41,580 bases of DNA from a virus. Its lineage: Duplodnaviria; Heunggongvirae; Uroviricota; Caudoviricetes. Of this stretch, positions 3,191 through 35,436 are shown piece after piece (positions within the stretch are counted from its first letter, which is position 1; every line of letters begins with the position of its first letter). The notes beneath the pieces were generated by a model. It was not told where the DNA came from. It made no database searches and was given only the letters and a program-made list of their open reading frames with translations. The stretch lies in the IMG/VR virus record IMGVR_UViG_2565956608_000009. The stretch is one strand, 5' to 3'. Position numbers and translations under genes: made by a program.

Positions 3191-3205
3191 TTACCCTATA
3201 GGTGA
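3191..3205. promoter_or_regulatory. Operator-like palindrome TTACC-ctata-GGTGA upstream of the acetyltransferase gene
   Basis: One mismatch to TTACC-N5-GGTAA; 37 nt upstream of ATG 3242 in the divergent holin/acetyltransferase intergenic region. Confidence 0.4.
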
Positions 3206-5212: not shown

Positions 5213-7444
5213 TTAAGACTTCTTAAGGTACGACCATGTAACAGTGGTCGTACCGCTGCTGGTAATAGATATATCCCTTTCTGATACGCTTGCTGTGAGG
5301 AACACCGCAGTCTTCAGCGGCTGGATCATTGCTGTCGTACCATCATAAATTACCAGGAATGAAATCGCGTAGTTTGCACCTCCGCCAGAAACCCACACGT
5401 TAACATCATAAACTCCCTCAGAGTTTGGCAAAGTAAAGAGCACGGACGCTACGTTAGCGTTGACCGATTTAGTACCATTGTCGGTATAGACCGTGGGCAC
5501 CTGAAGCCCATTGGCATTTTTATTTTCTACATACCCACCAGCAATAACGCCTGACGTGATGCAGTTCGTGTAGTTAACGTTGCCGGTGCTCACAGTAGAG
5601 ATGGTTGGAGTTCCTCCGGCCGGAGCCTGGAACCGGCAGTTATCTGCATCAACCTGCGAGGTTACATCTGTGTGGATGAATGATGGATAGCCGGCCATTC
5701 CTTCAAAAGCGATCGGCGTACCATCGAAGCTATCTTTGCAGTTCAGCATCTTCACGCGAGATCCATTTATCGCGCGGTAAAAATCAACGATACCATTAGA
5801 ACCACCGAAAGATGTTTTCAACTTGTTGCCAGAACCAACTGCCCCGACTATCGAAACGGTTGAATTATCGAATGTCATAAACGCCACCTCAAGTGCTGAG
5901 TTGTTGTTTATAACGTTCGCCTCACCATCAAAACCGGAGATAAGAAATCCGTGACAATTCGAAAGGTAAATAGCAGACTGACCGATAGACGCGTTGGAGT
6001 TTACTGTCATCTTATCTGCTGCGCAGTTCGTCATCTGCCCTGAAAGGAGGTTTGTTAAATACCACGCGCATACGCCACCCATTACATAGCAGGACTCATA
6101 ATGGATCGTCGTGCCGGTGTTTTTGTAGAAACCACCGCGACTGCGACGCACCCATACATGCTCAAGCCTAGACATATAATTTCCAGAGTCGTCATATACT
6201 CCCCACCATGCCCCATCTATATCGACGTTTTTAATCCTTATCAAACCCGGCGATGTCTCACCACCATTTATAAGAATGCCAATTTTACCGTCGTTTGTGG
6301 CAGCATCTGTTGGATAGTCAATTCCATTCTGATCATAGAAAATATATAAATTCTCAATATTTCCTGAAGCAAAAGACTCTCCATAATGTAAGCACGCTTT
6401 ATTTCCAATTACGGAAATAAAAGTCCCTGATCTATTTATTATGTTATTACACTCACCGTATACAGTTGCAGATGTATTCATCTTAATAGTGTCATTAACA
6501 AAATATGCATTTCCACCTGGAATAAACACATTTCGTCCAGTGTTAATAGCTGCCTGTATTCCTGCGTAGTCAAAAGACTGGGTAAGCGATGTCACAAATG
6601 GATATACCATTTGTGCTGCTGTCAATGTTGAAAACACTTCGCTTAACTGATGAAGTTTTCCATCGCCTGTAGCACCAAAATCTTTTGCACTAATAAAATC
6701 GCTGTTTTTATCATGCTGTGTACGAATAAATGAACTAATGAAAGGTTGCTTCACCGAGATCAGAGCATCGCCTTTCCCGTCCTCGCCGCTGGCCAACTGG
6801 TTGAATACGTCAGCCGCCGTTCCTGAAGGCACAGGGAACGGAACGGGCTTACCGTTGGCGATGCCGATTATGCTTCCTTCAAGTTGAGCGAGAGGTGGCA
6901 GCGGATCGATATAAGAATCAGGAACACGGATTGTATGGTCGATATTCGATAAAACCGTACTGTCCACATAATTCTTTGTGGATGCATCCTGCGGGTTTAC
7001 CGGGTCTTTCAGGTTTCGAATATAGTTGTTCAGCGCGTTATAATAATTTGCCACGAATGACGGCTTGCGCAGCGCCAAGCTAAACCAACTTCGAACCTGC
7101 TGGATCAGCATCGTTAGCTTATCAAAAGCATCCTCATGCACTTCTGCAAAGAACTTCCCCTGATTACGCAAATCAGTTTCCTGCGTAACCGGGAGCTCTC
7201 GTGATATAGAAATCTGGTAACCGTTAGCTAACGCCTTCGACAGAATTACATTACCGCCGTTATATCCACCAGCCCCAGTGACAGTGTAATCAGTATCCAG
7301 AGCCAGCACAGCGATATTTTCGTCAAGGTCAACCACCTGCACTACCAGATCAGATTCCTTGAAAACCCTAAAGGTATAAGGGAATGAAGTCGTAACGCCA
7401 TTGCCTGTGTATTCGTTGTGGTCAACTTCGGTTGAGACCGTCAT
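5213..7444 (-). CDS. Tailspike / tail fibre protein
   Basis: 743 aa; N-terminus NEYTGNGVTTSFPYTF resembles the conserved particle-binding domain of podovirus tail fibres and spikes; long beta-rich repetitive body; SD GGAG before ATG 7442-7444. Confidence 0.8.
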   Translation of the reverse strand: MTVSTEVDHNEYTGNGVTTSFPYTFRVFKESDLVVQVVDLDENIAVLALDTDYTVTGAGGYNGGNVILSKALANGYQISISRELPVTQETDLRNQGKFFAEVHEDAFDKLTMLIQQVRSWFSLALRKPSFVANYYNALNNYIRNLKDPVNPQDASTKNYVDSTVLSNIDHTIRVPDSYIDPLPPLAQLEGSIIGIANGKPVPFPVPSGTAADVFNQLASGEDGKGDALISVKQPFISSFIRTQHDKNSDFISAKDFGATGDGKLHQLSEVFSTLTAAQMVYPFVTSLTQSFDYAGIQAAINTGRNVFIPGGNAYFVNDTIKMNTSATVYGECNNIINRSGTFISVIGNKACLHYGESFASGNIENLYIFYDQNGIDYPTDAATNDGKIGILINGGETSPGLIRIKNVDIDGAWWGVYDDSGNYMSRLEHVWVRRSRGGFYKNTGTTIHYESCYVMGGVCAWYLTNLLSGQMTNCAADKMTVNSNASIGQSAIYLSNCHGFLISGFDGEANVINNNSALEVAFMTFDNSTVSIVGAVGSGNKLKTSFGGSNGIVDFYRAINGSRVKMLNCKDSFDGTPIAFEGMAGYPSFIHTDVTSQVDADNCRFQAPAGGTPTISTVSTGNVNYTNCITSGVIAGGYVENKNANGLQVPTVYTDNGTKSVNANVASVLFTLPNSEGVYDVNVWVSGGGANYAISFLVIYDGTTAMIQPLKTAVFLTASVSERDISITSSGTTTVTWSYLKKS

Positions 7445-7548
7445 GTTAAATCTCCAGATAGTCGCAGCACCCGTTGCGCCGCATATCTGGTTATTCTATT
7501 ACCTGAAAAACCATATATGGATGGAAAGAGTGTTAATGTGAGCAGATA

Positions 7549-7563
7549 TTACCTTTCAGGTGA
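7549..7563. promoter_or_regulatory. Operator-like palindrome TTACC-tttca-GGTGA
   Basis: One mismatch to the recurring TTACC-N5-GGTAA motif; intergenic between tailspike start and the 7640 gene. Confidence 0.4.
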
Positions 7564-7600
7564 TTCGCAAAACGTGCTGGATAGCAAACAAATTATTTGC

Positions 7601-7620
7601 TACTGTATAAACATACAGTT
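7601..7620. promoter_or_regulatory. LexA (SOS) box
   Basis: TACTGTATAAACATACAGTT: CTGT-N8-ACAG with the flanking TA of the consensus TACTGT(AT)4ACAGTA; 20 nt upstream of ATG 7640. Confidence 0.65.
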
Positions 7621-7639
7621 ATTGCATGGAGAAGATAAG

Positions 7640-7897
7640 ATGCAGCAGTATCACTATCCACTGGAAGAGGGATTTACCGAAAGGATTCACACGCCGGGAG
7701 GCGTCAGGTCACTGGTGGAAGGATCGCACTTGATGAAATTACTCCGGGATCTCGATAAGGATGGATTTAATGTCGATGGCCCACTTGCCGAACTGACTGC
7801 ACTGATTAACTACGTCACCAGCTCACAGATGTCTATGCAGGATCTGCAAACACATCTCGACTATTGTGCCGAACAACTACGAAAACAAACCACATAA
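7640..7897 (+). CDS. Small antirepressor-like protein (standalone homologue of the C-terminal domain of the Bro-N antirepressor at 9045-9755)
   Basis: 85 aa from ATG 7640 (SD GGAGAAG at 7628-7634); ORF track start 7517 would span the LexA box; clear similarity to the C-terminus of the 9045 protein (LMKLLRDLDKDGFNVDGPLAELT / LMNLLNQLQDDGHDVSGAAAELT; DLQTHLDY / DIQTHAEY). Confidence 0.55.
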   Translation: MQQYHYPLEEGFTERIHTPGGVRSLVEGSHLMKLLRDLDKDGFNVDGPLAELTALINYVTSSQMSMQDLQTHLDYCAEQLRKQTT

Positions 7898-7903
7898 AGA
7901 AAA

Positions 7904-7919
7904 GGCCGCAAGAGCGGCC
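7904..7919. terminator. Bidirectional terminator hairpin between convergent genes
   Basis: GGCCGC-aaga-GCGGCC; T-rich on the minus side, moderately T-rich on the plus side. Confidence 0.55.
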
Positions 7920-8647
7920 TATCGTTTCGCTTTGTGCTCGTCCCAGCACGTTTTGCACCATGCCATTAAGCCATCCGCATTTTGATTATTAGGGTAAAAG
8001 CTGGTTCGTTTTCTGCGGACATTACAAATTGGGCACCACTTCATATGACGTGTATTCTTTGGGCCATCTAGACACCTTGCACACCACTTAGTCAATCCAT
8101 CTGGATTTTTTGACGATTTCCTGAATTTTTCATATGGAAGGTTTATTCTGCATCGCAAACACTGCTTGCGGGCACTTGAAACTTCGTTAGCTGATTCTTC
8201 TTTTGACGGCGATACAGAAGGTATTCTTGCTGGCTCTGATACTGCCTGAGGTGCTTTTTTAGGTGACTGAGACGATACGTCATCACCAGGGAATCTTCCA
8301 TGATATGCCGGACACGTTGACACTCCAGGTGGAAGCTCTGCTGTAAATGGCTTTGGCTGAATCAGTTGCCTCTCTTTTGCTAACTCCTGCTGTTTATAAT
8401 ATGTCTGGATTACCGCGCTATCATAAGCAGGAGGTACGGAAATATTAGGCGCATTATCTCCCGTTTTTTGAAACTGAGTGGAGGTGTGTTCTATCACCTG
8501 TGTACGATTAATCGTTATCTCCCCATCTTCAGTCTTTATCGTTTTGTTACGATTAACGACCGTACGATCAGAGATCTTAGTCTTGTTCTGGTGAAGGACA
8601 TAAATAATCACCGCAACCACACCAACAACTATCCAGAAAACTTCCAT
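7919..8647 (-). CDS. Membrane-anchored protein with C-terminal double zinc-ribbon (four CxxC pairs), function unknown
   Basis: 242 aa; one N-terminal TM helix (FWIVVGVVAVIIYVL) followed by basic residues; C-terminus CLRC...CARC...CPIC...CKTC; SD GAGGAA before ATG 8645-8647. Confidence 0.6.
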   Translation of the reverse strand: MEVFWIVVGVVAVIIYVLHQNKTKISDRTVVNRNKTIKTEDGEITINRTQVIEHTSTQFQKTGDNAPNISVPPAYDSAVIQTYYKQQELAKERQLIQPKPFTAELPPGVSTCPAYHGRFPGDDVSSQSPKKAPQAVSEPARIPSVSPSKEESANEVSSARKQCLRCRINLPYEKFRKSSKNPDGLTKWCARCLDGPKNTRHMKWCPICNVRRKRTSFYPNNQNADGLMAWCKTCWDEHKAKR

Positions 8648-8667
8648 TGCTTTTCCTCACAATAACA

Positions 8668-8682
8668 TTACCTTAAAGGTAA
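8668..8682. promoter_or_regulatory. Operator palindrome TTACC-ttaaa-GGTAA
   Basis: Perfect copy; 21 nt upstream of the start codon of the minus-strand gene 7919-8647. Confidence 0.55.
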
Positions 8683-8760
8683 TATCTTGCTTTCAGGTGA
8701 TCAAGCGTTAAACGCCACCAACCAAATACGGTTGATTTTTATATTTCTCCGCGTTTATCA

Positions 8761-8775
8761 TTACCTTTGCGGTAA
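8761..8775. promoter_or_regulatory. Operator palindrome TTACC-tttgc-GGTAA
   Basis: Perfect copy at the head of the long leader upstream of the Bro-N antirepressor gene. Confidence 0.55.
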
Positions 8776-8810
8776 ATTTACATCGCACTCCTCTTGTGCC
8801 ATAGTAATCG

Positions 8811-8888
8811 GGCACTGGCAAAATCCAGTGCCGGGATTGGCGTCCCGGGTTACTAAGTGGCGCATACCACGCCAGACGTGGTTTTTTT
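8811..8888 (+). ncRNA. Structured leader / candidate small RNA or attenuator ending in an intrinsic terminator
   Basis: Three consecutive hairpins (GCACTGG/CCAGTGC 8812-8831; CCGGGA/TCCCGG 8831-8848; CCACG/CGTGG 8867-8881) followed by T7 run 8882-8888; located between operator 8761-8775 and the antirepressor SD at 9032. Confidence 0.35.
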
Positions 8889-9044
8889 ATGCGTTAAGCA
8901 CAGCTATATCCGAATTATGGTGGGCTGGGCAGGGGTCCGAAAGGACGCCGGTACCACTTAGGCCGGTACGCCAACCTTGTCCAGTTCACCACCAGTAATT
9001 GGCGTTGCGGTGGTGATTAAAATCACTAAGTGGAGATAACCACC

Positions 9045-9755
9045 ATGGCTAATGCTCAAACTTCCATCTTCAAATTTGAATCTGTTAACCCTATCCGTTC
9101 CATCATTATCGATGGCCAACCATGGTTTGTAGCCCAAGACGTTTGTAGTGCGCTGCGTATCCAAAACGTCACCCAAGCACTTGAAAAACTGGATGATGAT
9201 GAAAGGTCTATGTTCAACATAGGGCATGAACATCGTGCAATTTTTGACAGCCGAGTAAAAGAGATCAACATCATCTCCGAGTCAGGCCTCTACACACTGA
9301 TCCTCAGATGCCGCGACGCAGTGACACCAGGCACTATCCCCTACCGCTTTCGTAAATGGGTTACAGGTGAGGTTCTTCCTCAGATCCGCCGCACCGGAAG
9401 TTACATTAAAAACTCGCTCCCGCAGGAAGAACGCATAAAGATGGTTGCCGACCAGGTAGCCAACGCCACGGCGTCAGCAGTAATGCAGGCGATGAAGATA
9501 GAGAACAAAACCTACAGTGCCCCACTGAAGCCCGGCTACCGCAGTCTGATTCACTCGCCGTCTGGTGTTCTCGGCCTGACGGAGAACTCACTGCTGATGA
9601 ATCTGCTGAACCAGTTGCAGGACGACGGGCATGATGTATCGGGCGCGGCAGCGGAGCTGACCACCATGTTCTGCTACATCGTCGGTGTGAGCAAGTGCCT
9701 GCGTGATATCCAGACCCACGCGGAGTATATCAACGACAAAGCAGGGTTCTTCTGA
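9045..9755 (+). CDS. Antirepressor, Bro-N (KilA-N-type) N-terminal domain with Ant-type C-terminal domain
   Basis: Start ATG 9045 with SD GGAGA (track start is GTG 9030); N-terminal motif FVAQDVCSALRIQNVTQALEKLDDDE...YTLILR and VLPQIRRTGSY typical of Bro-N antirepressors. Confidence 0.8.
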   Translation: MANAQTSIFKFESVNPIRSIIIDGQPWFVAQDVCSALRIQNVTQALEKLDDDERSMFNIGHEHRAIFDSRVKEINIISESGLYTLILRCRDAVTPGTIPYRFRKWVTGEVLPQIRRTGSYIKNSLPQEERIKMVADQVANATASAVMQAMKIENKTYSAPLKPGYRSLIHSPSGVLGLTENSLLMNLLNQLQDDGHDVSGAAAELTTMFCYIVGVSKCLRDIQTHAEYINDKAGFF

Positions 9756-9827
9756 CGAGCGGCGGCACACGGATGTGCCTTTAAATAATTCTGTACAGAT
9801 TGCAGACTGGGGGTGAATAGCGTACTA

Positions 9828-9842
9828 TTACCTCAAGGGTAA
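9828..9842. promoter_or_regulatory. Operator palindrome TTACC-tcaag-GGTAA overlapping a candidate promoter
   Basis: Perfect copy; preceded by -35-like TTGCAG (9800-9805) and -10-like TACTAT (9823-9828). Confidence 0.55.
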
Positions 9843-9901
9843 GAAAGCATTTTTAATCTTCCCTTCAAAACGCGTCCTGTAGCCAAACATGGGAGGACGA
9901 A

Positions 9902-10534
9902 ATGAGAACAAATACAACAAGAAAAGCGATGCCATACATTATCCCAGAAGCAGATTTCGATAGAAAACTGAACATGTCTGAGAAGAACACTAGTCACACC
10001 GAAAGCTACTTAGCGAAAGGTGTGGTTGATTTCGTTCTTCCGGGATTCACAACACCTTATGGTTATCGCCTTGTAAAATCTTGTAATGGCGATCATTACA
10101 GAATGATTACTACCAGCGATACTCCAGAAACGGTGTATGCGGTTAAGTTAATCTTTCGGGAAGATATCGTCGAAGCCAAAAGAACATGTACGCAGATCAT
10201 GGTATGGCGTACGCCTAATGTTATTCATGACCGTGCTGTTCATGGTTTGCCTCAGATTTTTTTTCAGTTCTTCCTAGAGCAATATGCGATCGTTGTATCT
10301 GATGAGCAACAAACAATCGATGGGAGAAGATTCTGGGAAAGAATGATTTCTTGGGCTATAAACACCCCAGGATATAATGTATACGTTTCAGATGGCTCTG
10401 AAGAAGATAGACCTCTTAGCTTCATGACATCATGGGATGATTTCTATAGCCAGTGGGCTGATTTCTGTTGGGGCAGTGATAAAGATGTGCATACCCACAG
10501 ACTACTGGTTATAAGCAAAGATAAACTGCATTAA
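9902..10534 (+). CDS. Hypothetical protein (moron), no recognisable domain
   Basis: 210 aa; strong SD GGGAGGA at 9891-9897; own operator/promoter upstream and terminator downstream; starts with AGA codons. Confidence 0.6.
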   Translation: MRTNTTRKAMPYIIPEADFDRKLNMSEKNTSHTESYLAKGVVDFVLPGFTTPYGYRLVKSCNGDHYRMITTSDTPETVYAVKLIFREDIVEAKRTCTQIMVWRTPNVIHDRAVHGLPQIFFQFFLEQYAIVVSDEQQTIDGRRFWERMISWAINTPGYNVYVSDGSEEDRPLSFMTSWDDFYSQWADFCWGSDKDVHTHRLLVISKDKLH

Positions 10535-10538
10535 TAGA

Positions 10539-10561
10539 AGCCCGCAGCGCGGGCTTTTTTG
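10539..10561 (+). terminator. Rho-independent terminator
   Basis: AGCCCGC-agc-GCGGGCT followed by TTTTTT. Confidence 0.65.
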
Positions 10562-10631
10562 TGGATGAAACAAAAGTCAGTGCTACACTCATTGACGCCA
10601 CATTGAGGTGGCTTATAGATGGAAATTTCAA

Positions 10632-10793
10632 ATGAAAAAAGCATTTGCTGCACTGTTCGTTTTGTTGTCTCTGGTAGCTTCAACTCAGGCCTTTGCCGGT
10701 CGTTGTCAGCACGACAGCGATACTGCCGCTGACGGCTCCCGCTGCGGTGGGCGTTCTGCGGATTCTCGCCCGGGCGGCGGTGGCATTCGTTAA
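10632..10793 (+). CDS. Small secreted peptide (signal peptide plus about 31-aa mature Cys-containing peptide)
   Basis: 53 aa from ATG 10632 (track starts at GTG 10608); MKKAFAALFVLLSLVASTQAFA signal with AFA-G cleavage motif; weak SD. Confidence 0.4.
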   Translation: MKKAFAALFVLLSLVASTQAFAGRCQHDSDTAADGSRCGGRSADSRPGGGGIR

Positions 10794-10800
10794 AAAACAA

Positions 10801-10816
10801 GGCCGCGAAAGCGGCC
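10801..10816. terminator. Terminator hairpin closing the minus-strand late operon (also follows the + strand small gene)
   Basis: GGCCGC-gaaa-GCGGCC; on the minus strand followed by TTGTTTTTT. Confidence 0.6.
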
Positions 10817-10817
10817 T

Positions 10818-10829
10818 GTGACATGTCAC
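10818..10829. repeat. 12-bp perfect palindrome GTGACATGTCAC, copy 1 of 3
   Basis: Identical 12-mer also at 28049-28060 and 30314-30325; copies 1 and 3 share the extended GTGACATGTCACACT. Confidence 0.6.
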
Positions 10830-10986
10830 ACTCACGTTATGACAAGCCTATGTATCCTGCTACACCAGATAATATCAAAATAACTGCAACAGCAAATTCG
10901 CCATCGTCAATGATACATTTACGGTTCATAACGCCAAGTGCAACAAGCGCAAACACAACAAGAATAAAAGCAATCATTTCTCATCC

Positions 10987-13461
10987 TTATTGCGGAGTGA
11001 CATCCTGTGGTCGCCACCAGTATGTCTGGTTAAACTCTTTCTTCGAACGTTGCTCCATTTTACGCAAATAGCCTGGTGAAAAATACTCCTGCATCTGGTT
11101 AAAGATCATGTGATCGAGAGCCGCCTTCAAGTACCAGAGATTCGCACCTGGCATCAGCCCCTTCCCCAGCTTAACCAGATCACCACCAGTCTGCTCATTC
11201 TTCCCTTCCACAGCATTTAACGGTATGCCCTGAGCAATCTTCACTACGTCATCAACCAGACCAGCTACCGGGCCAAGCATCGACGCCAGCGCGCCGCTTC
11301 CGTACCTAGTGTGATCTGACAATAAAAAGTCACCGTAAAGGCCAAGACCACCACCTTTCAGTAGAGCACCAAGCCAAAATTTAGCAGCATCTTCTCCTGT
11401 CATCTCGCGATGATTACGACCAGACGCAAGGTCGTTAAGTTGCTGAGACAAAGCGCCAAGAATGGTCGTGCTGGCAATAAACGTCGCAATATATGCCGCA
11501 CGCCCACCAGCAGACGGCATACCCATAGCGCGTGACCAGTGACGCATAACCACCGAGATAGGGAACGATTTAAACAGGAAAACACTTCTCGTTAATTCAC
11601 CTTTCCATGTTCCACGCTGAATACCAGAACCGGTTATCAGTTGCTCACGTGCTCCCGGTGTAATAACAGCCATATCAACTTCTTCAGTTACGGCACCGAG
11701 CAGTTTACGCATTGCCTCAAATTTCACGCGTTCAGGCTCACCAAGATGTTTAACTGCTGAATCAGGGATACGCATAATGCTTTCCGGTGTCAGCATCGTA
11801 TTATTACCGTTCCCCCAGTCCTCCTGTTGCGCCAGCTTCCATACGCTCCAGTCTGTGTCAGTAATCCCTTTGCTTTTCAGGATACGAAAATCAGAGTCAT
11901 CGAGGCTACGAAGGTCTGGTGTCCGTGACACTACTTCTCCCAGGCTTCCCATCATGGTTACGCCATAGGCGCGCTTGTGCGCATCTGACCATGCTGTAAG
12001 CCCACTGGCACGCATTACCGCCGTTGCAGCCCAACGAGACACTGACGGCCCCATATTATCCATCGCCCAGCGGTTAACGCTGCCAAGTAGAGATTCCATC
12101 GCCAGACCAGCGCGGCGCGCCCGCGCAAGCTCAGTACGGTTCGTTGGGTCCATAGCTTCAAGCTGGTTGCGGAATAACTGGTTCATTGGAAGGTTGGTCA
12201 CCTTCGCAGACAGATACATGGTTCCAAGATCAGAGAACGATGACAGCAACGCGGATCCGAGTCTGCTGGCAACCAGCCAGTTGCGGATATTGTCAGACCA
12301 TCGCGCGATGTGCGGATTTGCTACAGGCTGTGTCTTTCCGGAAATAAAGTTGTACAGATTCTCTGTGTTGTTCGCCAGCCGCTCGACTTTACCGGTTTTA
12401 CTCGGGTTAGCTGTTGCCGTTTCTGCCTTCACCTGATCAAGAAGAGAGCGGAAAACATGATCGGGGTTTGGGCCATATGTTTCCACCAGTGCAATATCTT
12501 TACTGATACCTTCCAGGTGACCGACCATGATTTCCCATAGAGAGCGATCGCCATAAAGTTGCTGATATTGCAGATAGGAATCTGCATCTTTGAAATGTAT
12601 CTGTCGTGATGCATTACCACGGTTAGCACGTGCGCCGGAAATTCGCATTCCGGTATCAGTAAGCTTATTCAGCCCACCAGTAGCGATCGTGTTATAAGCC
12701 TCTCCAAGAAATGCAGACAACTCGGCATCGTTCATCAGTTGTCCATCGGCTCGGATATAATATTTGCGATCCAGCTTACCTATAACATCGCTAACCCACT
12801 TATCCTTTGATACCGCCCCAACCTTTTCCATAGAATGATGTTGAGGGATCCCCCAGTTTTCGAGATAGCCAATGTCCCCACCAGCATCATTAAACCGGCG
12901 GCGCAGCAGCTCTGTAACTTCTCTCCACGCCTTAGCACCTTTTCTTGCTTTAGCATTGCCAGTATTTTGCCCCCGCATTTCATATACCAGGTCACGTACG
13001 CCCGCTTCATCTTCAAACAGACCAAAAAAGCGAGGATCAACTGCTTCGAATGCCTCCTGCAATTGACTCAATGCATAATCACGGGTGGCTTTTGTTCTGG
13101 ATTCAACAGAGAGGAAATTAGACTTACCGTCTGCATTAAAAGCTATAGTACGGTTAAGAGCGCCAAGTTTCCCATCAGCCCCTTGATAGCTATTGATAAA
13201 TTTATCCAATCTCTGACGTGCAGCTATAGTGAGAGCCACACGACGTTTCTTTAATGCCGCTTCTCGCTGTAATTCTTCAGATGCCAATTGTGCTGCACGA
13301 TACAGCCGCTCTGACTCGGAAAGTTGTCGCCACGACATAGGGTCATCACGAGCAATGGAGCGCATATTGCGATAAATGCGGTCTTCAATGTTCTGTATTT
13401 CTCGCGCCGTTAACGTGCGCTGCGCCGCCTGCTGGACCGCTTGTATACATTCCTGTCTCAT
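10987..13461 (-). CDS. Internal virion / ejection protein (large)
   Basis: 824 aa; position between nozzle-side genes and tailspike as in T7-like core protein sets; no specific motif recognised. Confidence 0.6.
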   Translation of the reverse strand: MRQECIQAVQQAAQRTLTAREIQNIEDRIYRNMRSIARDDPMSWRQLSESERLYRAAQLASEELQREAALKKRRVALTIAARQRLDKFINSYQGADGKLGALNRTIAFNADGKSNFLSVESRTKATRDYALSQLQEAFEAVDPRFFGLFEDEAGVRDLVYEMRGQNTGNAKARKGAKAWREVTELLRRRFNDAGGDIGYLENWGIPQHHSMEKVGAVSKDKWVSDVIGKLDRKYYIRADGQLMNDAELSAFLGEAYNTIATGGLNKLTDTGMRISGARANRGNASRQIHFKDADSYLQYQQLYGDRSLWEIMVGHLEGISKDIALVETYGPNPDHVFRSLLDQVKAETATANPSKTGKVERLANNTENLYNFISGKTQPVANPHIARWSDNIRNWLVASRLGSALLSSFSDLGTMYLSAKVTNLPMNQLFRNQLEAMDPTNRTELARARRAGLAMESLLGSVNRWAMDNMGPSVSRWAATAVMRASGLTAWSDAHKRAYGVTMMGSLGEVVSRTPDLRSLDDSDFRILKSKGITDTDWSVWKLAQQEDWGNGNNTMLTPESIMRIPDSAVKHLGEPERVKFEAMRKLLGAVTEEVDMAVITPGAREQLITGSGIQRGTWKGELTRSVFLFKSFPISVVMRHWSRAMGMPSAGGRAAYIATFIASTTILGALSQQLNDLASGRNHREMTGEDAAKFWLGALLKGGGLGLYGDFLLSDHTRYGSGALASMLGPVAGLVDDVVKIAQGIPLNAVEGKNEQTGGDLVKLGKGLMPGANLWYLKAALDHMIFNQMQEYFSPGYLRKMEQRSKKEFNQTYWWRPQDVTPQ

Positions 13462-18324: not shown

Positions 18325-18788
18325 TATTTTCTCTCCATGTGAAATCTGTGGAAATTAAGACCAAGAGCACCATAAGGCGCGGCTTCTTCAAGCCTGAATC
18401 CAAGCCAGTGGAGCCATGCTTTGGCAACATGGTTTCGCTCGTCGACGTAGTTTTCCAGGCGCGGATAAACTGCCAGCATCTGCCGCAATACAGGGTGGCA
18501 GTGGCGAAGAAATGTCTTCTGATATTTTTCAATACGGCTGGTCCCGACCAGCCAGGGCGTACCATTGCCACCGATCATTGACGCCGGAGATACACCAAAC
18601 ATGGTTACCAGTTCTCCGTTCGCGAACCCTGACCAGGCCATAGTCGCAGTGCGCAGACCAACACGCAGCGCATCTTCGGTAGTCATCAGCGATACCGCAT
18701 ACAGTTCGTCAATATCAGCCTGACGAACATCCGGCAAAATCATCTGAAGATGCTCTTCGGTTGCGGGAATAATTTGAACACCAATCAT
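18324..18788 (-). CDS. Hypothetical late protein
   Basis: 154 aa; start overlaps the stop of the upstream gene (ATGA). Confidence 0.5.
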   Translation of the reverse strand: MIGVQIIPATEEHLQMILPDVRQADIDELYAVSLMTTEDALRVGLRTATMAWSGFANGELVTMFGVSPASMIGGNGTPWLVGTSRIEKYQKTFLRHCHPVLRQMLAVYPRLENYVDERNHVAKAWLHWLGFRLEEAAPYGALGLNFHRFHMERK

Positions 18789-21259
18789 CAGAATCCCCCA
18801 ACAGTAAGGCGAGGAATAACGGCAAGAACAGACAGCGGCAACGGATCAAGCTGACGGATTTTTACACGTCCGTTTTTGCCCCAGTTACTGTCCAGTTTCA
18901 CTTCTACTTTTCCGGTAGCATCATCAACAGGATCATCGTAGAACTCGAATTCACGCTGTGGATATTCGTACCATTTACCGCCGGGCGTAGTCGCCCAGAT
19001 GCCGCGGCTGGCATTCACAACCAGAGTAACGGATGGGATCACCTGTTTTTTGTCCAGCAGCGTTTCCTGTCCGTTAATGTTGATATCCAGTGTTTCGAAT
19101 TCAGCAGTTATTGGCAGGCCGATGTGCACTACAGCCCCCGGAGATTCCAGCGTGACGGCACCTCCGGAAACCACTTTCTGTGGTTCCACGTTCGCATCAG
19201 AGAGAATGTTTACGGTCTGGCCTTCAAGATGAGACAGGCCTCCAAATGTCCGGCGCGCCATCTGCCAGTTCGTGGTGGCCACATTCCTGAGGGATGGCGG
19301 GACGTTCCTGTTAGCACGAACCACTACAGCGGTATTGCTGGTTACAGAAATAATGTCGCAACGTAATTCTTTTGACACTTCATCGCCAGTATCAGGATCA
19401 GTTCCGGTATAAGGGAATTGTAGTTGCGCACCGACATCACTACTGGTGAAGTACGCACCACCAGAAATACTGATTGTATATTCCACGCGGTAATCCCATT
19501 CACCAGAACCACCAGTGATGGTCATCGTTCTGTCAGACGTATTTCTTCCATCATAGCTAAGGCCAGAATCAACAAAGAAAGCATCTTCATCGCTGGTAAA
19601 TAAACGGCTGGACAGCCGCTCGATGTATCTCACTGTTTGCCCGTTAACGGTTCGGTTAACGACGAAATACACCGCATCTTCATTTCCTTCGCTGATACTG
19701 CATGTGCTTTCATATTTTCCGGTACTGGACTGTGGTGCCCATGCAAAAACCTGTTGATCACGCAAATAGGTCATCACCAGTAATTTACCGTCATCACGAA
19801 TGCAGAAGGCGCTGGAGTAAGGGACAATAGAGAAGCACCAGTCAACAATGCTGTGCTTCTGAAAAAGATGATTGGCAAGGATGGTCAGGTCGTTCCCCTG
19901 ATAGCCGTCAACATCGAATGAGTAGGCCAGATCACGGACAACACTGCCTTTCTCCTGGACGAACAGAGCAATATTCGCCACGGCAATTGGTGGGACATTG
20001 CTCGAGCCATTTGATCCCTGAGAGCTGAATGCAAATGATGATGGGGTTAACACTTTGTTCTGGTCGCCGGTGATGACGTACTCACCTCCGGAAGTCAGCG
20101 CCACCAGCGAACCAACATCAATCAGGTGACGGATCTCATTAACCTGACGCCCGGCATAGGTGTAGATAATTCTGTCGTCATCCTGCGTAGGATTGCTTTT
20201 GCCAAAATCCTTATAATCCCCAGTACGGCTGGCTCAGATAGTCTGAGGGAACGCAGTCGATGCGGCGAAGTAAAGACGTTGTTGATAATAAACAACAGTG
20301 CCAGGATAACCATTAACACTGTTCCAGGCATATTTAGCCCATTTATAGCTGGCATTATCCTCGCCAACTACCTGCGAAGGGATATAGGAAATCACCTCGG
20401 CAGTTGCAGTAGTTCCATTTGCAGCAGTGATACGGGCAATGCCAAAACCACTGTGCAGATACTCCCACTCAATGCCAGTATCATCATCACCGGAGCCGCC
20501 CCAGCCATCCCATGATGTGCCTTCTGTATGCGAAGGGCGCAAAGTGCCTGTTTTGCCTGCTGTAACGGCGCGATAGTAGTTACTGTCTGCACGGCGAATA
20601 TCGCTAATCGACGTACTCTTACTGGTTTCCCATACCGGCACTGAATCCACTGCAGGCTGTTCCAGATAGAACAATTTGCCTACCTGCTCCGCGCCAAAAA
20701 TAGAGGCGCTTGCCGTTAACGTAATTGTCCCAGTGCTGGCGCTGGCATAAACCGTCACTGACTCGTCGATATTGATATCTTCAAATGGTCCGTTCTTCGT
20801 TACCACATCAACCAGTTGCCAGTTGTCATGCGCATAGCGACGCAACTCTTTCGGCGGGTATGCCGGATGAACAAGCGTAAGCACGTCGGCGCTTTGCGTG
20901 AATTTAATTCGGAACAGATCGGCTTCAGTATATGGCGTGGCAATTTCATAAATAACATTGCTGCTGTTCAGCACCAACGCACCATCTTTGATAACGCGCA
21001 TGTACTGGTGTCCGAACTCCAGAGCGTAGGTCTGAACCGTCGAGAACTGGAACGGGATCAGGCGGCATTTCCGATTTGGGTATTTGGCGGCACCGACAAA
21101 ACGCGTACCAGGTCGATTCTCAACGCCGCCATACTGCCGCACGATAAAGTTATCGCACTTGCGCAATGCCACCTGGTACTTCGCCATGTCGATACGACCG
21201 TACAACGACGGTCCAATCTCACCACCGGCAAAGCTGGGCTGGATCCAACTGATAGCCAT
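18788..21259 (-). pseudogene. T7 gp12-like tail nozzle gene interrupted by a single in-frame TGA (20234-20236)
   Basis: ORFs 20234-21259 (341 aa) and 18788-20104 (438 aa) are in the same frame; the 43 codons between them are open and the track start at 20104 is a GTG inside continuous coding; combined about 822 codons, the size expected for a nozzle protein. Confidence 0.6.
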
Positions 21260-34851: not shown

Positions 34852-35436
34852 ATGAAAAGTATCCAGGACGTCCGCAGGCAAAATCTCAACGACTTGATCG
34901 ACCGTGAATTCAATGGTGTTCAGACGCGGATGGCAGAAAAACTTGGAACTCAGGCAAATCTGGTAAACCGCTGGGCTCTTGGCAAGAAGGTTATCGGCGA
35001 CCAGGTTGCGCGAAAAATTGAAGCTGCCGCCAATAAACCCCGTAACTGGCTTGATATCGATCGCTCGCTTTCTCAGGAAGGTTTTCAGCCTGTCGGCCCA
35101 AGCGACATTGGTCAGCTGGCGGCTCACAACCTGGAACGCTGGATGAGCGAAAGCCGCGACCTTTCAACACAGGGAAAACTTCACCGCGCATCCGGCGTCG
35201 CCCAGGTGACAATCAGCCGCCTGTTAAACAATGAGGTCAGCGTTTCCATTTCCACCCTGGAGAATGTTGCATCTGCATTCGGGCGTCACGGATATGAACT
35301 ACTGATTCATCCGCATGACCCTGCAACTATCAACTATGACCGCTCGCGCTACGCATTGTTACCTGAAACAGAGAAGGCAAAGATCGAAAGTTACATTGAA
35401 TTTGTCATCAACCAGAACGAAAAAAACAAACAATAA
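34852..35436 (+). CDS. Prophage repressor candidate: tandem helix-turn-helix protein without a peptidase domain
   Basis: 194 aa; two XRE-like HTH segments (QTRMAEKLGTQANLVNRWALGKK and LHRASGVAQVTISRLLNNEVSVSISTLENVASAFG); no S24 Ala-Gly/Ser-Lys motif; followed by a strong terminator. Confidence 0.6.
   Translation: MKSIQDVRRQNLNDLIDREFNGVQTRMAEKLGTQANLVNRWALGKKVIGDQVARKIEAAANKPRNWLDIDRSLSQEGFQPVGPSDIGQLAAHNLERWMSESRDLSTQGKLHRASGVAQVTISRLLNNEVSVSISTLENVASAFGRHGYELLIHPHDPATINYDRSRYALLPETEKAKIESYIEFVINQNEKNKQ

Follow-up and report, generated by a model that had tools for sequence, protein, structure and literature searches.

Does an accessory gene of a prophage bring its own expression signals with it, or does it use those of the place in which it sits, and when would such signals let it be expressed? 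This question is raised by a gene for a 210-aa protein (9902-10534, + strand) in IMGVR_UViG_2565956608_000009, a record of 41,580 nucleotides from a virus of the Caudoviricetes, the whole of which is referred to here as the window. The first-pass annotation, made from the sequence alone, described the gene as a self-contained moron cassette with its own promoter, operator, leader hairpin and terminator, and it suggested a role in defence or conversion during lysogeny. The features that it listed are all present in the sequence where it had placed them. Their ownership is different. Here we describe an exchangeable cargo slot in which the promoter-like element, the operator and the terminator belong to the phage, while the leader and the open reading frame (ORF) are the mobile part. 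The operator is predicted to be that of the prophage repressor, and the gene is probably switched on at prophage induction and not expressed during lysogeny.

The window is annotated as a prophage adjoining yfgH/yfgI, with the integrase gene at the opposite end. Its nearest phages are TL-2011b and phiv142-3, the latter of which is classed in the genus Uetakevirus. Because the annotation, the relatives and the repressor agree, the phage is an epsilon15/SPC32H-like Uetakevirus prophage of E. coli. The P22-like phage that had been assumed initially is ruled out by the same three lines of evidence.

The slot and its cargos

On one side the slot is bounded by a BRO-N antirepressor gene and on the other by a conserved gene, the product of which is a secreted protein of 53 aa. 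In an alignment of this region with TL-2011b, phiv142-3 and four E. coli prophages, the sequences are nearly identical where the BRO-N gene ends and remain so across the promoter-like element and a palindrome; the likeness stops directly after the GGTAA that ends at 9842. Homology is back at the terminator stem (approximately 10540) and continues into the downstream gene for the 53-aa protein. The exchangeable segment, consisting of leader and ORF, thus spans 9843-10539 (+ strand). Because homology breaks after 9842 and returns at approximately 10540, the promoter-like element, the operator and the terminator are, on the evidence of this alignment, properties of the slot, and the mobile part is the leader with its ORF. 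The description as a self-contained cassette therefore does not hold: the flanking homology covers the promoter, the palindrome and the terminator, and only approximately 9843-10539 is cargo.

Five alternative cargos of the slot were found. These are the 210-aa gene, two unrelated modules that each combine a small ORF with a YafO-family toxin, a DUF4760 protein, and a pair of small ORFs; apart from the toxin modules, the other cargos encode proteins without an assigned function. Each cargo was searched alone in 5,426 complete E. coli genomes. The 210-aa gene is present in 93 of them, the two YafO toxin modules in 61 and 69, the DUF4760 cargo in 41 and the pair of small ORFs in 77. The 143-bp module upstream of the cargo is complete in 318 genomes. 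In more diverged prophages of this type the same slot is occupied by homologues with 82-83% identity to the 210-aa gene. The guanine-plus-cytosine (GC) content of the cargo is about 40.8-40.9%, against 48.9% for the window. The view of the 210-aa gene as an accessory gene is borne out both by this difference and by the absence of the gene from close relatives, which hold other cargo at the same place. Its composition and distribution support a horizontal acquisition.

The promoter-like element of the slot (9800-9828, + strand) consists of a -35 hexamer TTGCAG (9800-9805), a 17-nt spacer and a -10 hexamer TACTAT (9823-9828). It stands upstream of five different cargos. With 7 of 12 consensus positions it falls under the threshold of a promoter scanner, and it is best described as a putative weak promoter of the sigma-70 type. 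The hexamers that had been attributed to a promoter of the gene itself are therefore present and conserved, but they match the consensus poorly and are the property of the slot. At least three other promoters in the window (8761, 35556 and 27056) bear an operator in the same arrangement as at 9828, in which the operator begins with the final T of the -10 hexamer. Because of this overlap the operator at 9828 covers the predicted transcription start (approximately 9835).

At the other end of the cargo, an intrinsic terminator (10538-10560, + strand) is formed by AAGCCCGC-AGC-GCGGGCTT and a following T run. It is a conserved part of the slot and common to all cargo variants. The GC-rich stem GCCCGC/GCGGGC (10540-10554) can be extended by two A-T pairs and is followed by T6, with a folding energy of -17.6 kcal/mol (z = -2.9), which bears out the terminator described downstream of the gene. 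A consensus terminator scanner made no call at 10538-10560, in our reading because the stem extension consumes the beginning of the T run.

The slot contains a further conserved element. A short hairpin, GGCACA-cgga-TGTGCC, followed by TTTAAATAATT, lies at 9761-9790 (+ strand; arms 9764-9769 and 9774-9779) and is conserved across all cargo variants. It is likely the weak terminator of the upstream BRO-N gene. The gene that follows the slot (10632-10793, + strand) encodes the 53-aa protein, which has an apparent signal peptide and belongs to PHROG 14503, 'membrane associated protein'. It comes after almost every cargo variant examined and has its own promoter-like TTGACG/TAGATG element, which carries no repressor operator. 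This may be the gene of the region that is actually expressed in the lysogen.

Two other genes of the prophage may be mentioned here. The 242-aa protein encoded at 7919-8647 (- strand; PHROG 6762) has a hydrophobic N-terminal segment and C-terminal zinc-ribbon repeats with weak resemblance to the zinc-binding modules of Stc1, Lar-like proteins and endonuclease VII. Its gene is found only in some prophages of the Uetakevirus type and may be another variable accessory gene. A large tail-protein gene (18788-21259, - strand) has an in-frame stop at codon 342 and is a RefSeq pseudogene in strain SCU-116. This prophage copy may be virion-deficient.

The prophage repressor and its predicted operators

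The palindrome at 9828-9842, TTACCTCAAGGGTAA, is a perfect match to TTACC-N5-GGTAA and is predicted to be a repressor-type operator. Sites of this form with at most one mismatch were counted in the whole window and compared with 100 shuffles. There are 16 such sites, 10 of them perfect, against an expectation of 0.62, and none of the 100 shuffles reached 16. TTACC is the only enriched arm among palindromes of the 5-N5-5 form: it occurs 10 times, whereas no other arm occurs more than twice. Three of the sites (34734, 34765 and 34782) are in the intergenic region that separates the repressor gene from the divergent cro-like gene, and two (35494 and 35556) are found at a strong promoter downstream of the repressor gene. 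Others are upstream of the terminase gene and of replication and late-region genes, and one is in the divergent region between lysis and acyltransferase genes. The site at 7549 precedes an 85-aa Ant-like gene, and those at 8668 and 8761 precede the BRO-N gene. In TL-2011b and phiv142-3, whose repressors are 98-100% identical to that of the window, 14-15 operator sites are found at matching places.

The presumed binder of the 9828 operator is encoded at 34852-35436 (+ strand). The protein has two helix-turn-helix domains (Pfam HTH_3), lacks an S24 peptidase domain and is homologous over its full length to the repressor of Salmonella phage SPC32H (PDB 5D50, E = 4e-42, residues 1-190). The genome of SPC32H itself has 18 TTACC-N5-GGTAA sites, three of them between rep and its divergent neighbour. 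SPC32H Rep is described as a tetramer on palindromic sites that is disassembled and released by the antirepressor Ant (PMC9638917). The Rep/Ant system is represented in the PDB by 5D50 and 5D4Z and was studied by Kim and Ryu (2013) and Kim et al. (2016), as summarised in PMC9638917. The 16 sites of the window, the 18 of SPC32H and the homology to 5D50 together indicate that the palindrome is a phage-wide operator of an SPC32H-type repressor, not an operator of the gene's own as originally proposed.

Pairs of operators exactly 62 bp apart, centre to centre, occur in four genomes (the window, TL-2011b, phiv142-3 and SPC32H). In the window these are 32413/32475 and 35494/35556, and several other sites are solitary. 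A distance of 62 bp, about six helical turns, would suit a tetrameric repressor that holds two palindromes.

The operator core ACCT-N3-AGGT resembles the palindrome AACCT-N3-AGGTT of the MqsA antitoxin (PMC4894380). Identity with a host MqsA site was considered; the repressor shows no significant similarity to an approximate MqsA sequence, and the resemblance is kept as a lead.

The region upstream of the slot contains additional regulatory elements. A LexA box, CTGTATAAACATACAG, lies at 7603-7618, directly upstream of the 85-aa Ant-like gene (7640-7897, + strand). This gene is 2 kb from the cargo and adjoins the tailspike gene, in the position of the 86-aa antirepressor gene ant of SPC32H. 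Together, the LexA box and the Ant-like gene would couple repressor inactivation to the SOS response. Upstream of the BRO-N gene (9045-9755), Rfam models detect c4 targets a1/b1 at 8799-8851 (44.1 bits, gathering score 46.7), isrK at 8812-8888 (67.7 bits) and a C4 antisense RNA at 8913-8996 (66 bits, + strand). Such elements make up an antisense immunity module of the phage P1 type, which here lies downstream of a promoter TTGATT-18-TATCAT fused to the operator at 8761. Because the c4/isrK elements stand upstream and follow an operator-fused promoter, the BRO-N protein looks like a second antirepressor under the control of a c4 RNA.

The leader, the protein and its homologues

The cargo begins with a leader. 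The ribosome-binding site GGGAGGA, which had been described as a strong Shine-Dalgarno sequence, is indeed present at 9891-9897, 4 nt upstream of the ATG. The 3' half of this site can be occluded by a hairpin (9873-9899, + strand) in which CGUCCU (9873-9878) pairs with AGGACG (9894-9899), a perfect 6-bp inverted repeat. On its own the hairpin is unremarkable in folding (z = -1.2 to -1.5). In the predicted transcript 9835-9915 the pairing is part of the minimum-energy structure. A different hairpin, UCUUCCC/GGGAGGA, was rejected: it is the minimum-energy structure only for a 5'-truncated fragment, and in the full transcript the 5' end captures that segment.

Twenty leaders of homologues were aligned, from E. 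coli, phage LLS, Symbiopectobacterium, Acerihabitans, Yersinia, Photorhabdus, Mixta, Serratia, Xenorhabdus and Providencia. In these otherwise divergent sequences two elements never vary, an upstream UCC and the ribosome-binding-site GGA, and an equivalent (G/C)UCC : GGA(G/C) pairing is available. At the flanking pair 16-40, nine leaders have G-C and three have C-G; at pair 15-41, seven have U-A and two have C-G. The alignment has a covariation score of 0.138, compared with 0.090 for shuffles, none of 500 of which reached 0.138. All nine GUCC leaders have GGAC or GGGC downstream, and CUCC leaders are able to pair with GGAG in a second register. When 12 leaders were folded singly, the ribosome-binding site was enclosed in a hairpin in every one. 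The leaders of more distant homologues (Proteus, Enterobacter) lack the hairpin. Rfam 15 gave no match in the leader (9843-9901), and within 7400-11000 only the c4/isrK matches were found. The suggestion that a hairpin partly occludes the Shine-Dalgarno sequence is therefore upheld by the sequence and by equivalents in leaders that come from over eight genera and show limited covariation. Support for the hairpin as a conserved element that damps translation is moderate and not conclusive, because the core is invariant and the leader sequences are related.

Leaders that sequester the ribosome-binding site are known as translational attenuators and as RNA thermometers such as fourU or ROSE. The likeness to these lies in a short hairpin, conserved in homologues, between an upstream pyrimidine-rich element and the ribosome-binding site. 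It differs in that the stem is 4-7 bp with a loop of 10-17 nt, in that there is no Rfam match, and in that no signal or ligand is evident. A separate element was observed in the leaders of homologues from Yersinia, Photorhabdus, Serratia and Mixta (loci L005-L015). Here a GC-rich hairpin with a T run, for example GCCGAAGCAAAGAATTTCGGCTTTTTTT, lies approximately 40-70 nt before the ATG of the homologue, between a conserved TACACT -10-like box and the hairpin at the ribosome-binding site. It has no match in Rfam and looks like a transcription attenuator.

The 210-aa protein (WP_001260052.1, annotated 'hypothetical') is cytoplasmic and matches PHROG 1349, a PHROG of unknown function, over its full length (E = 3e-113). 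Searches of Pfam, NCBIfam, PADLOC and PDB sequences with the protein gave no match; PADLOC v2.0.0 gave none even at E <= 1. Profiles of 45 and 100 sequences had no significant match among PDB sequences, and a literature search on the protein accession and the PHROG number found nothing. The early remark that the gene has no recognisable motif is thus confirmed at the level of sequence families. The close relatives form 63 clusters at 90% identity, and all that carry an organism name are from Enterobacterales. A profile search found 903 representative clusters at E <= 0.001 (clustered at 50% identity), mostly of stand-alone proteins of approximately 200 aa. Near-invariant across the family are N29, Y79, W102, D134, F144, W145 and I204. 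The core motif of the family is S-D-x-x-Q-T-x-x-G-x-R-F-W, which corresponds to D134-x-x-Q-T-x-x-G141-x-R-F-W in the 210-aa protein.

The AlphaFold model of the protein has a mean predicted local distance difference test score (pLDDT) of 80.9 and a predicted template modelling score (pTM) of 0.78. A Foldseek search of the PDB with this model gave weak matches, all of them GNAT proteins. A library of viral structures gave full-length matches to uncharacterised phage proteins and then to proteins of the acetyltransferase superfamily. Structure prediction with structural search, one of the checks that had been recommended, suggests a GNAT-like fold, and no sequence family. The likeness to the GNAT superfamily, which includes the toxins TacT, AtaT and KacT, consists of a predicted antiparallel sheet followed by strand-helix-strand-helix-strand, of structural neighbours that are nearly all GNAT, and of conserved residues that cluster at a strand-helix loop. 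In GNAT proteins this loop binds the acyl-CoA pyrophosphate. The conserved residues D134, Q137, T138, G141, R143, F144 and W145 surround a strand-loop-helix that we judge, because of the order of the secondary-structure elements in the model, to be the counterpart of the pyrophosphate loop. Because the conserved motif differs from the canonical GNAT motif A, Q/R-x-x-G-x-G/A, the protein is described as GNAT-like in its predicted fold and is not filed as a member of the GNAT family. Compared with motif A, the Gly stands one position away, and Arg takes the place of the second Gly/Ala. Domain fusions give weak hints only: an MqsA-type zinc ribbon, a sub-threshold SAD/SRA match and DUF5397. The zinc ribbon is fused to one distant family member (P0152), the neighbourhood of which is uninformative.

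Homologues are found outside the slot. The lambdoid phage LLS has an 84%-identical copy after the lysis genes Rz/Rz1 with its own terminator. This copy is preceded by a promoter-like TTGGCT-17-TACTAT element fused to a perfect operator, TTACCCAGAAGGTAA (locus L081, 42053-42067), and TTACCCAGAAGGTAA is the only perfect operator site in the LLS genome. The site is an orphan, as the repressor of LLS itself is of a different kind. A co-resident Uetakevirus repressor might regulate the LLS homologue across phages. Similar palindromes occur upstream of homologues in some other viral contigs. In other genera a single homologue is found at genus-specific chromosomal sites among housekeeping genes (ppc, metF, nfsB-like), and sequence inspection identified the large proteins upstream of homologues as a ShlA/HpmA-type hemolysin, PEP carboxylase and MetL. 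The LLS copy, the viral contigs and the genus-specific chromosomal sites indicate that the gene moves between phages and chromosomes, sometimes with an operator. A conserved partner gene, as antitoxin or immunity gene, was sought in 69 loci of other genera, and no neighbour was common across contexts.

Expression, function and comparison with known systems

These results lead us to propose, with about as much confidence for as against the proposal taken whole, that the 210-aa gene is the cargo of a repressor-operated slot, that its translation is damped by the leader hairpin, and that it encodes a GNAT-like modifying protein. The slot would supply a promoter-like element whose -10 hexamer is fused to the 15-bp operator of the phage, together with the intrinsic terminator. 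The cargo would bring its own leader, in which the upstream CGUCCU pairs with the ribosome-binding site. The prophage repressor, the homologue of SPC32H Rep, would sit on the transcription start and keep the gene off or low in the lysogen. Because the palindrome abuts the -10 hexamer and covers the predicted start, the gene is probably repressor-silenced in the lysogen and switched on at prophage induction. Transcription would begin at approximately 9835 once Rep is inactivated, as it is by Ant in SPC32H, and the Ant-like gene with its LexA box could act in this way from 2 kb away. The hairpin would then damp translation of the cargo transcript. The product would be a soluble, stand-alone protein with a divergent GNAT-like fold. 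A cofactor-dependent modifying enzyme is the most likely activity that we can name from the predicted structure; it would modify a protein or small-molecule target in the lytic or induction phase with acyl-CoA or another nucleotide cofactor.

Several observations weigh against this proposal. The promoter hexamers are a poor match to the consensus (7 of 12 positions). The operator at 9828 stands alone, whereas the best-defined operators come in 62-bp pairs, and repression at 9828 may therefore be weak or need DNA looping. The presence of a site is also no proof of silencing: the operator-like site at 3191 adjoins an O-antigen acyltransferase gene, and such genes are usually expressed in lysogens. 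The hairpin is short, its core is invariant and thus uninformative, and two pairing registers compete. With regard to the protein, motif A, which in GNAT proteins lies in the loop between strand 4 and helix 3, is not in register, and Pfam searches with 100 diverse family members gave no GNAT model and no match at all. Finally, the homologues of Enterobacter, Proteus, Providencia, Morganella, Xenorhabdus and Photorhabdus are single genes with ordinary -10 boxes and with neither operator nor conserved partner. These chromosomal homologues fit a general cellular function better than a phage-specific one.

Some of the same evidence would suit a classical moron, that is, a gene with its own promoter active in the lysogen and with a defence, superinfection-exclusion or conversion function for the host. 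The base composition is atypical, a promoter-like element and a terminator lie on either side, and the slot also takes YafO toxin-antitoxin modules and the DUF4760 protein, which are typical cargo of defence hotspots. In addition, the LLS homologue after Rz/Rz1 is in a classical moron position, the chromosomal homologues appear constitutively promoted, and the solitary operator is perhaps bound weakly. We nevertheless find this explanation doubtful, as a repressor-type operator overlaps the predicted transcription start and points to induction instead of the lysogen expression first expected for a defence or conversion gene. Moreover, no PADLOC model is matched by the 210-aa protein or by the other cargos, and the homologues sit among housekeeping genes and not in defence islands. 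The alternation with YafO toxins in one slot and the two layers of control, transcriptional and translational, would agree with a solitary GNAT-type toxin or host shut-off factor, which acetylates aminoacyl-tRNA or another essential target and is silent until commitment to lysis. However, no antitoxin gene lies upstream, where the leader measures only 59 nt from the slot junction to the ATG, and there is no partner ORF here and none conserved across the 69 other loci in a test for RHH/DUF1778 antitoxins. At 210 aa the protein is also longer than the toxin chains in the structural match lists (approximately 150-180 aa). In many genera a homologue is stably kept on the chromosome in single copy, under an ordinary promoter and without a partner, which would be hard to tolerate if the protein were a strong toxin, and we regard a toxin function as very improbable.

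The departure from motif A and the rare fusion to an MqsA-type zinc ribbon could also indicate a GNAT-like module without catalysis. Such a protein would bind a ligand or another protein as a regulator, sensor or decoy, for example as an anti-defence or anti-repressor accessory factor of an immI-like region, and the surroundings are rich in repressor and antirepressor parts (the Ant-like gene, the BRO-N gene and the c4 RNA). It would leave the strong conservation of the polar residues N29, Y79 and D134 over approximately 900 clusters to be accounted for, and the Tyr and the acidic residue resemble a catalytic pair. A role of this kind seems unlikely to us. The proposal of a repressor-operated slot with a modifying enzyme as cargo can also be extended. 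The slot might be a cargo bay that is fired by induction and takes several genes, toxin modules included, none of which would be expressed until the repressor is disabled. The 210-aa protein might found an uncurated family of GNAT-like enzymes (approximately 900 clusters) that modifies a host or competitor target at the transition from lysogeny to lysis, with the dose set by the hairpin. The orphan operator of LLS would then let a resident Uetakevirus repressor control the gene of another phage. This extended version is speculative, and we give it little credence as a whole.

If the operator works as predicted, all five cargos, including the toxin modules, would be induction-phase functions, which changes how such 'morons' are screened for and interpreted. 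The protein family is large (903 clusters) and has no Pfam entry. Its members occur in phages and at fixed chromosomal sites of many Enterobacterales, and all of them could be annotated once the function of one is found. The system is directly testable in a relative of a model phage, as the structures of the SPC32H repressor and antirepressor are solved.

One of the closest known systems is Rep/Ant of SPC32H. The repressor of the window is a full-length homologue of Rep, and the same family of palindromes is dispersed over both genomes. The 85-aa gene adjoins the tailspike gene where SPC32H has ant, and it has a LexA box upstream. The core operators are paired at 62 bp, whereas the 9828 site of the window is solitary. 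Phage P1 has dispersed C1 operators, and the likeness there is that many separate operons each have their own operator. To our knowledge, an exchangeable cargo slot under such a repressor operator has no earlier description.

Morons were reportedly defined in lambdoid phages by Juhala, Hendrix and co-workers in 2000, and expression in the lysogen is their usual hallmark. Phage morons have been reviewed (PMC3594210). The 210-aa gene is similar in being a single accessory gene of atypical GC content, preceded by a promoter-like element and followed by an intrinsic terminator. It is likewise flanked by conserved backbone genes, close relatives lack it, and it passes from one phage type to another, as the LLS copy indicates. 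It differs in that the promoter and terminator of the Uetakevirus belong to the fixed slot and not to the gene. In addition, the slot promoter carries the operator of the prophage repressor, and expression in the lysogen is doubtful.

Rousset et al. are said to have described, in 2022, hotspots of accessory genes in P2/P4 phages and satellites. It is usually assumed that lysogens express the accessory genes of prophage hotspots. The slot resembles these hotspots in its fixed position, its conserved flanks and its mutually exclusive cargos. Toxin-antitoxin modules are among these cargos, and within one species the cargos are similarly frequent. In contrast to the P2/P4 hotspots, the cargos here match no known defence models, and the slot adds a promoter that is predicted to be gated by the repressor of the phage.

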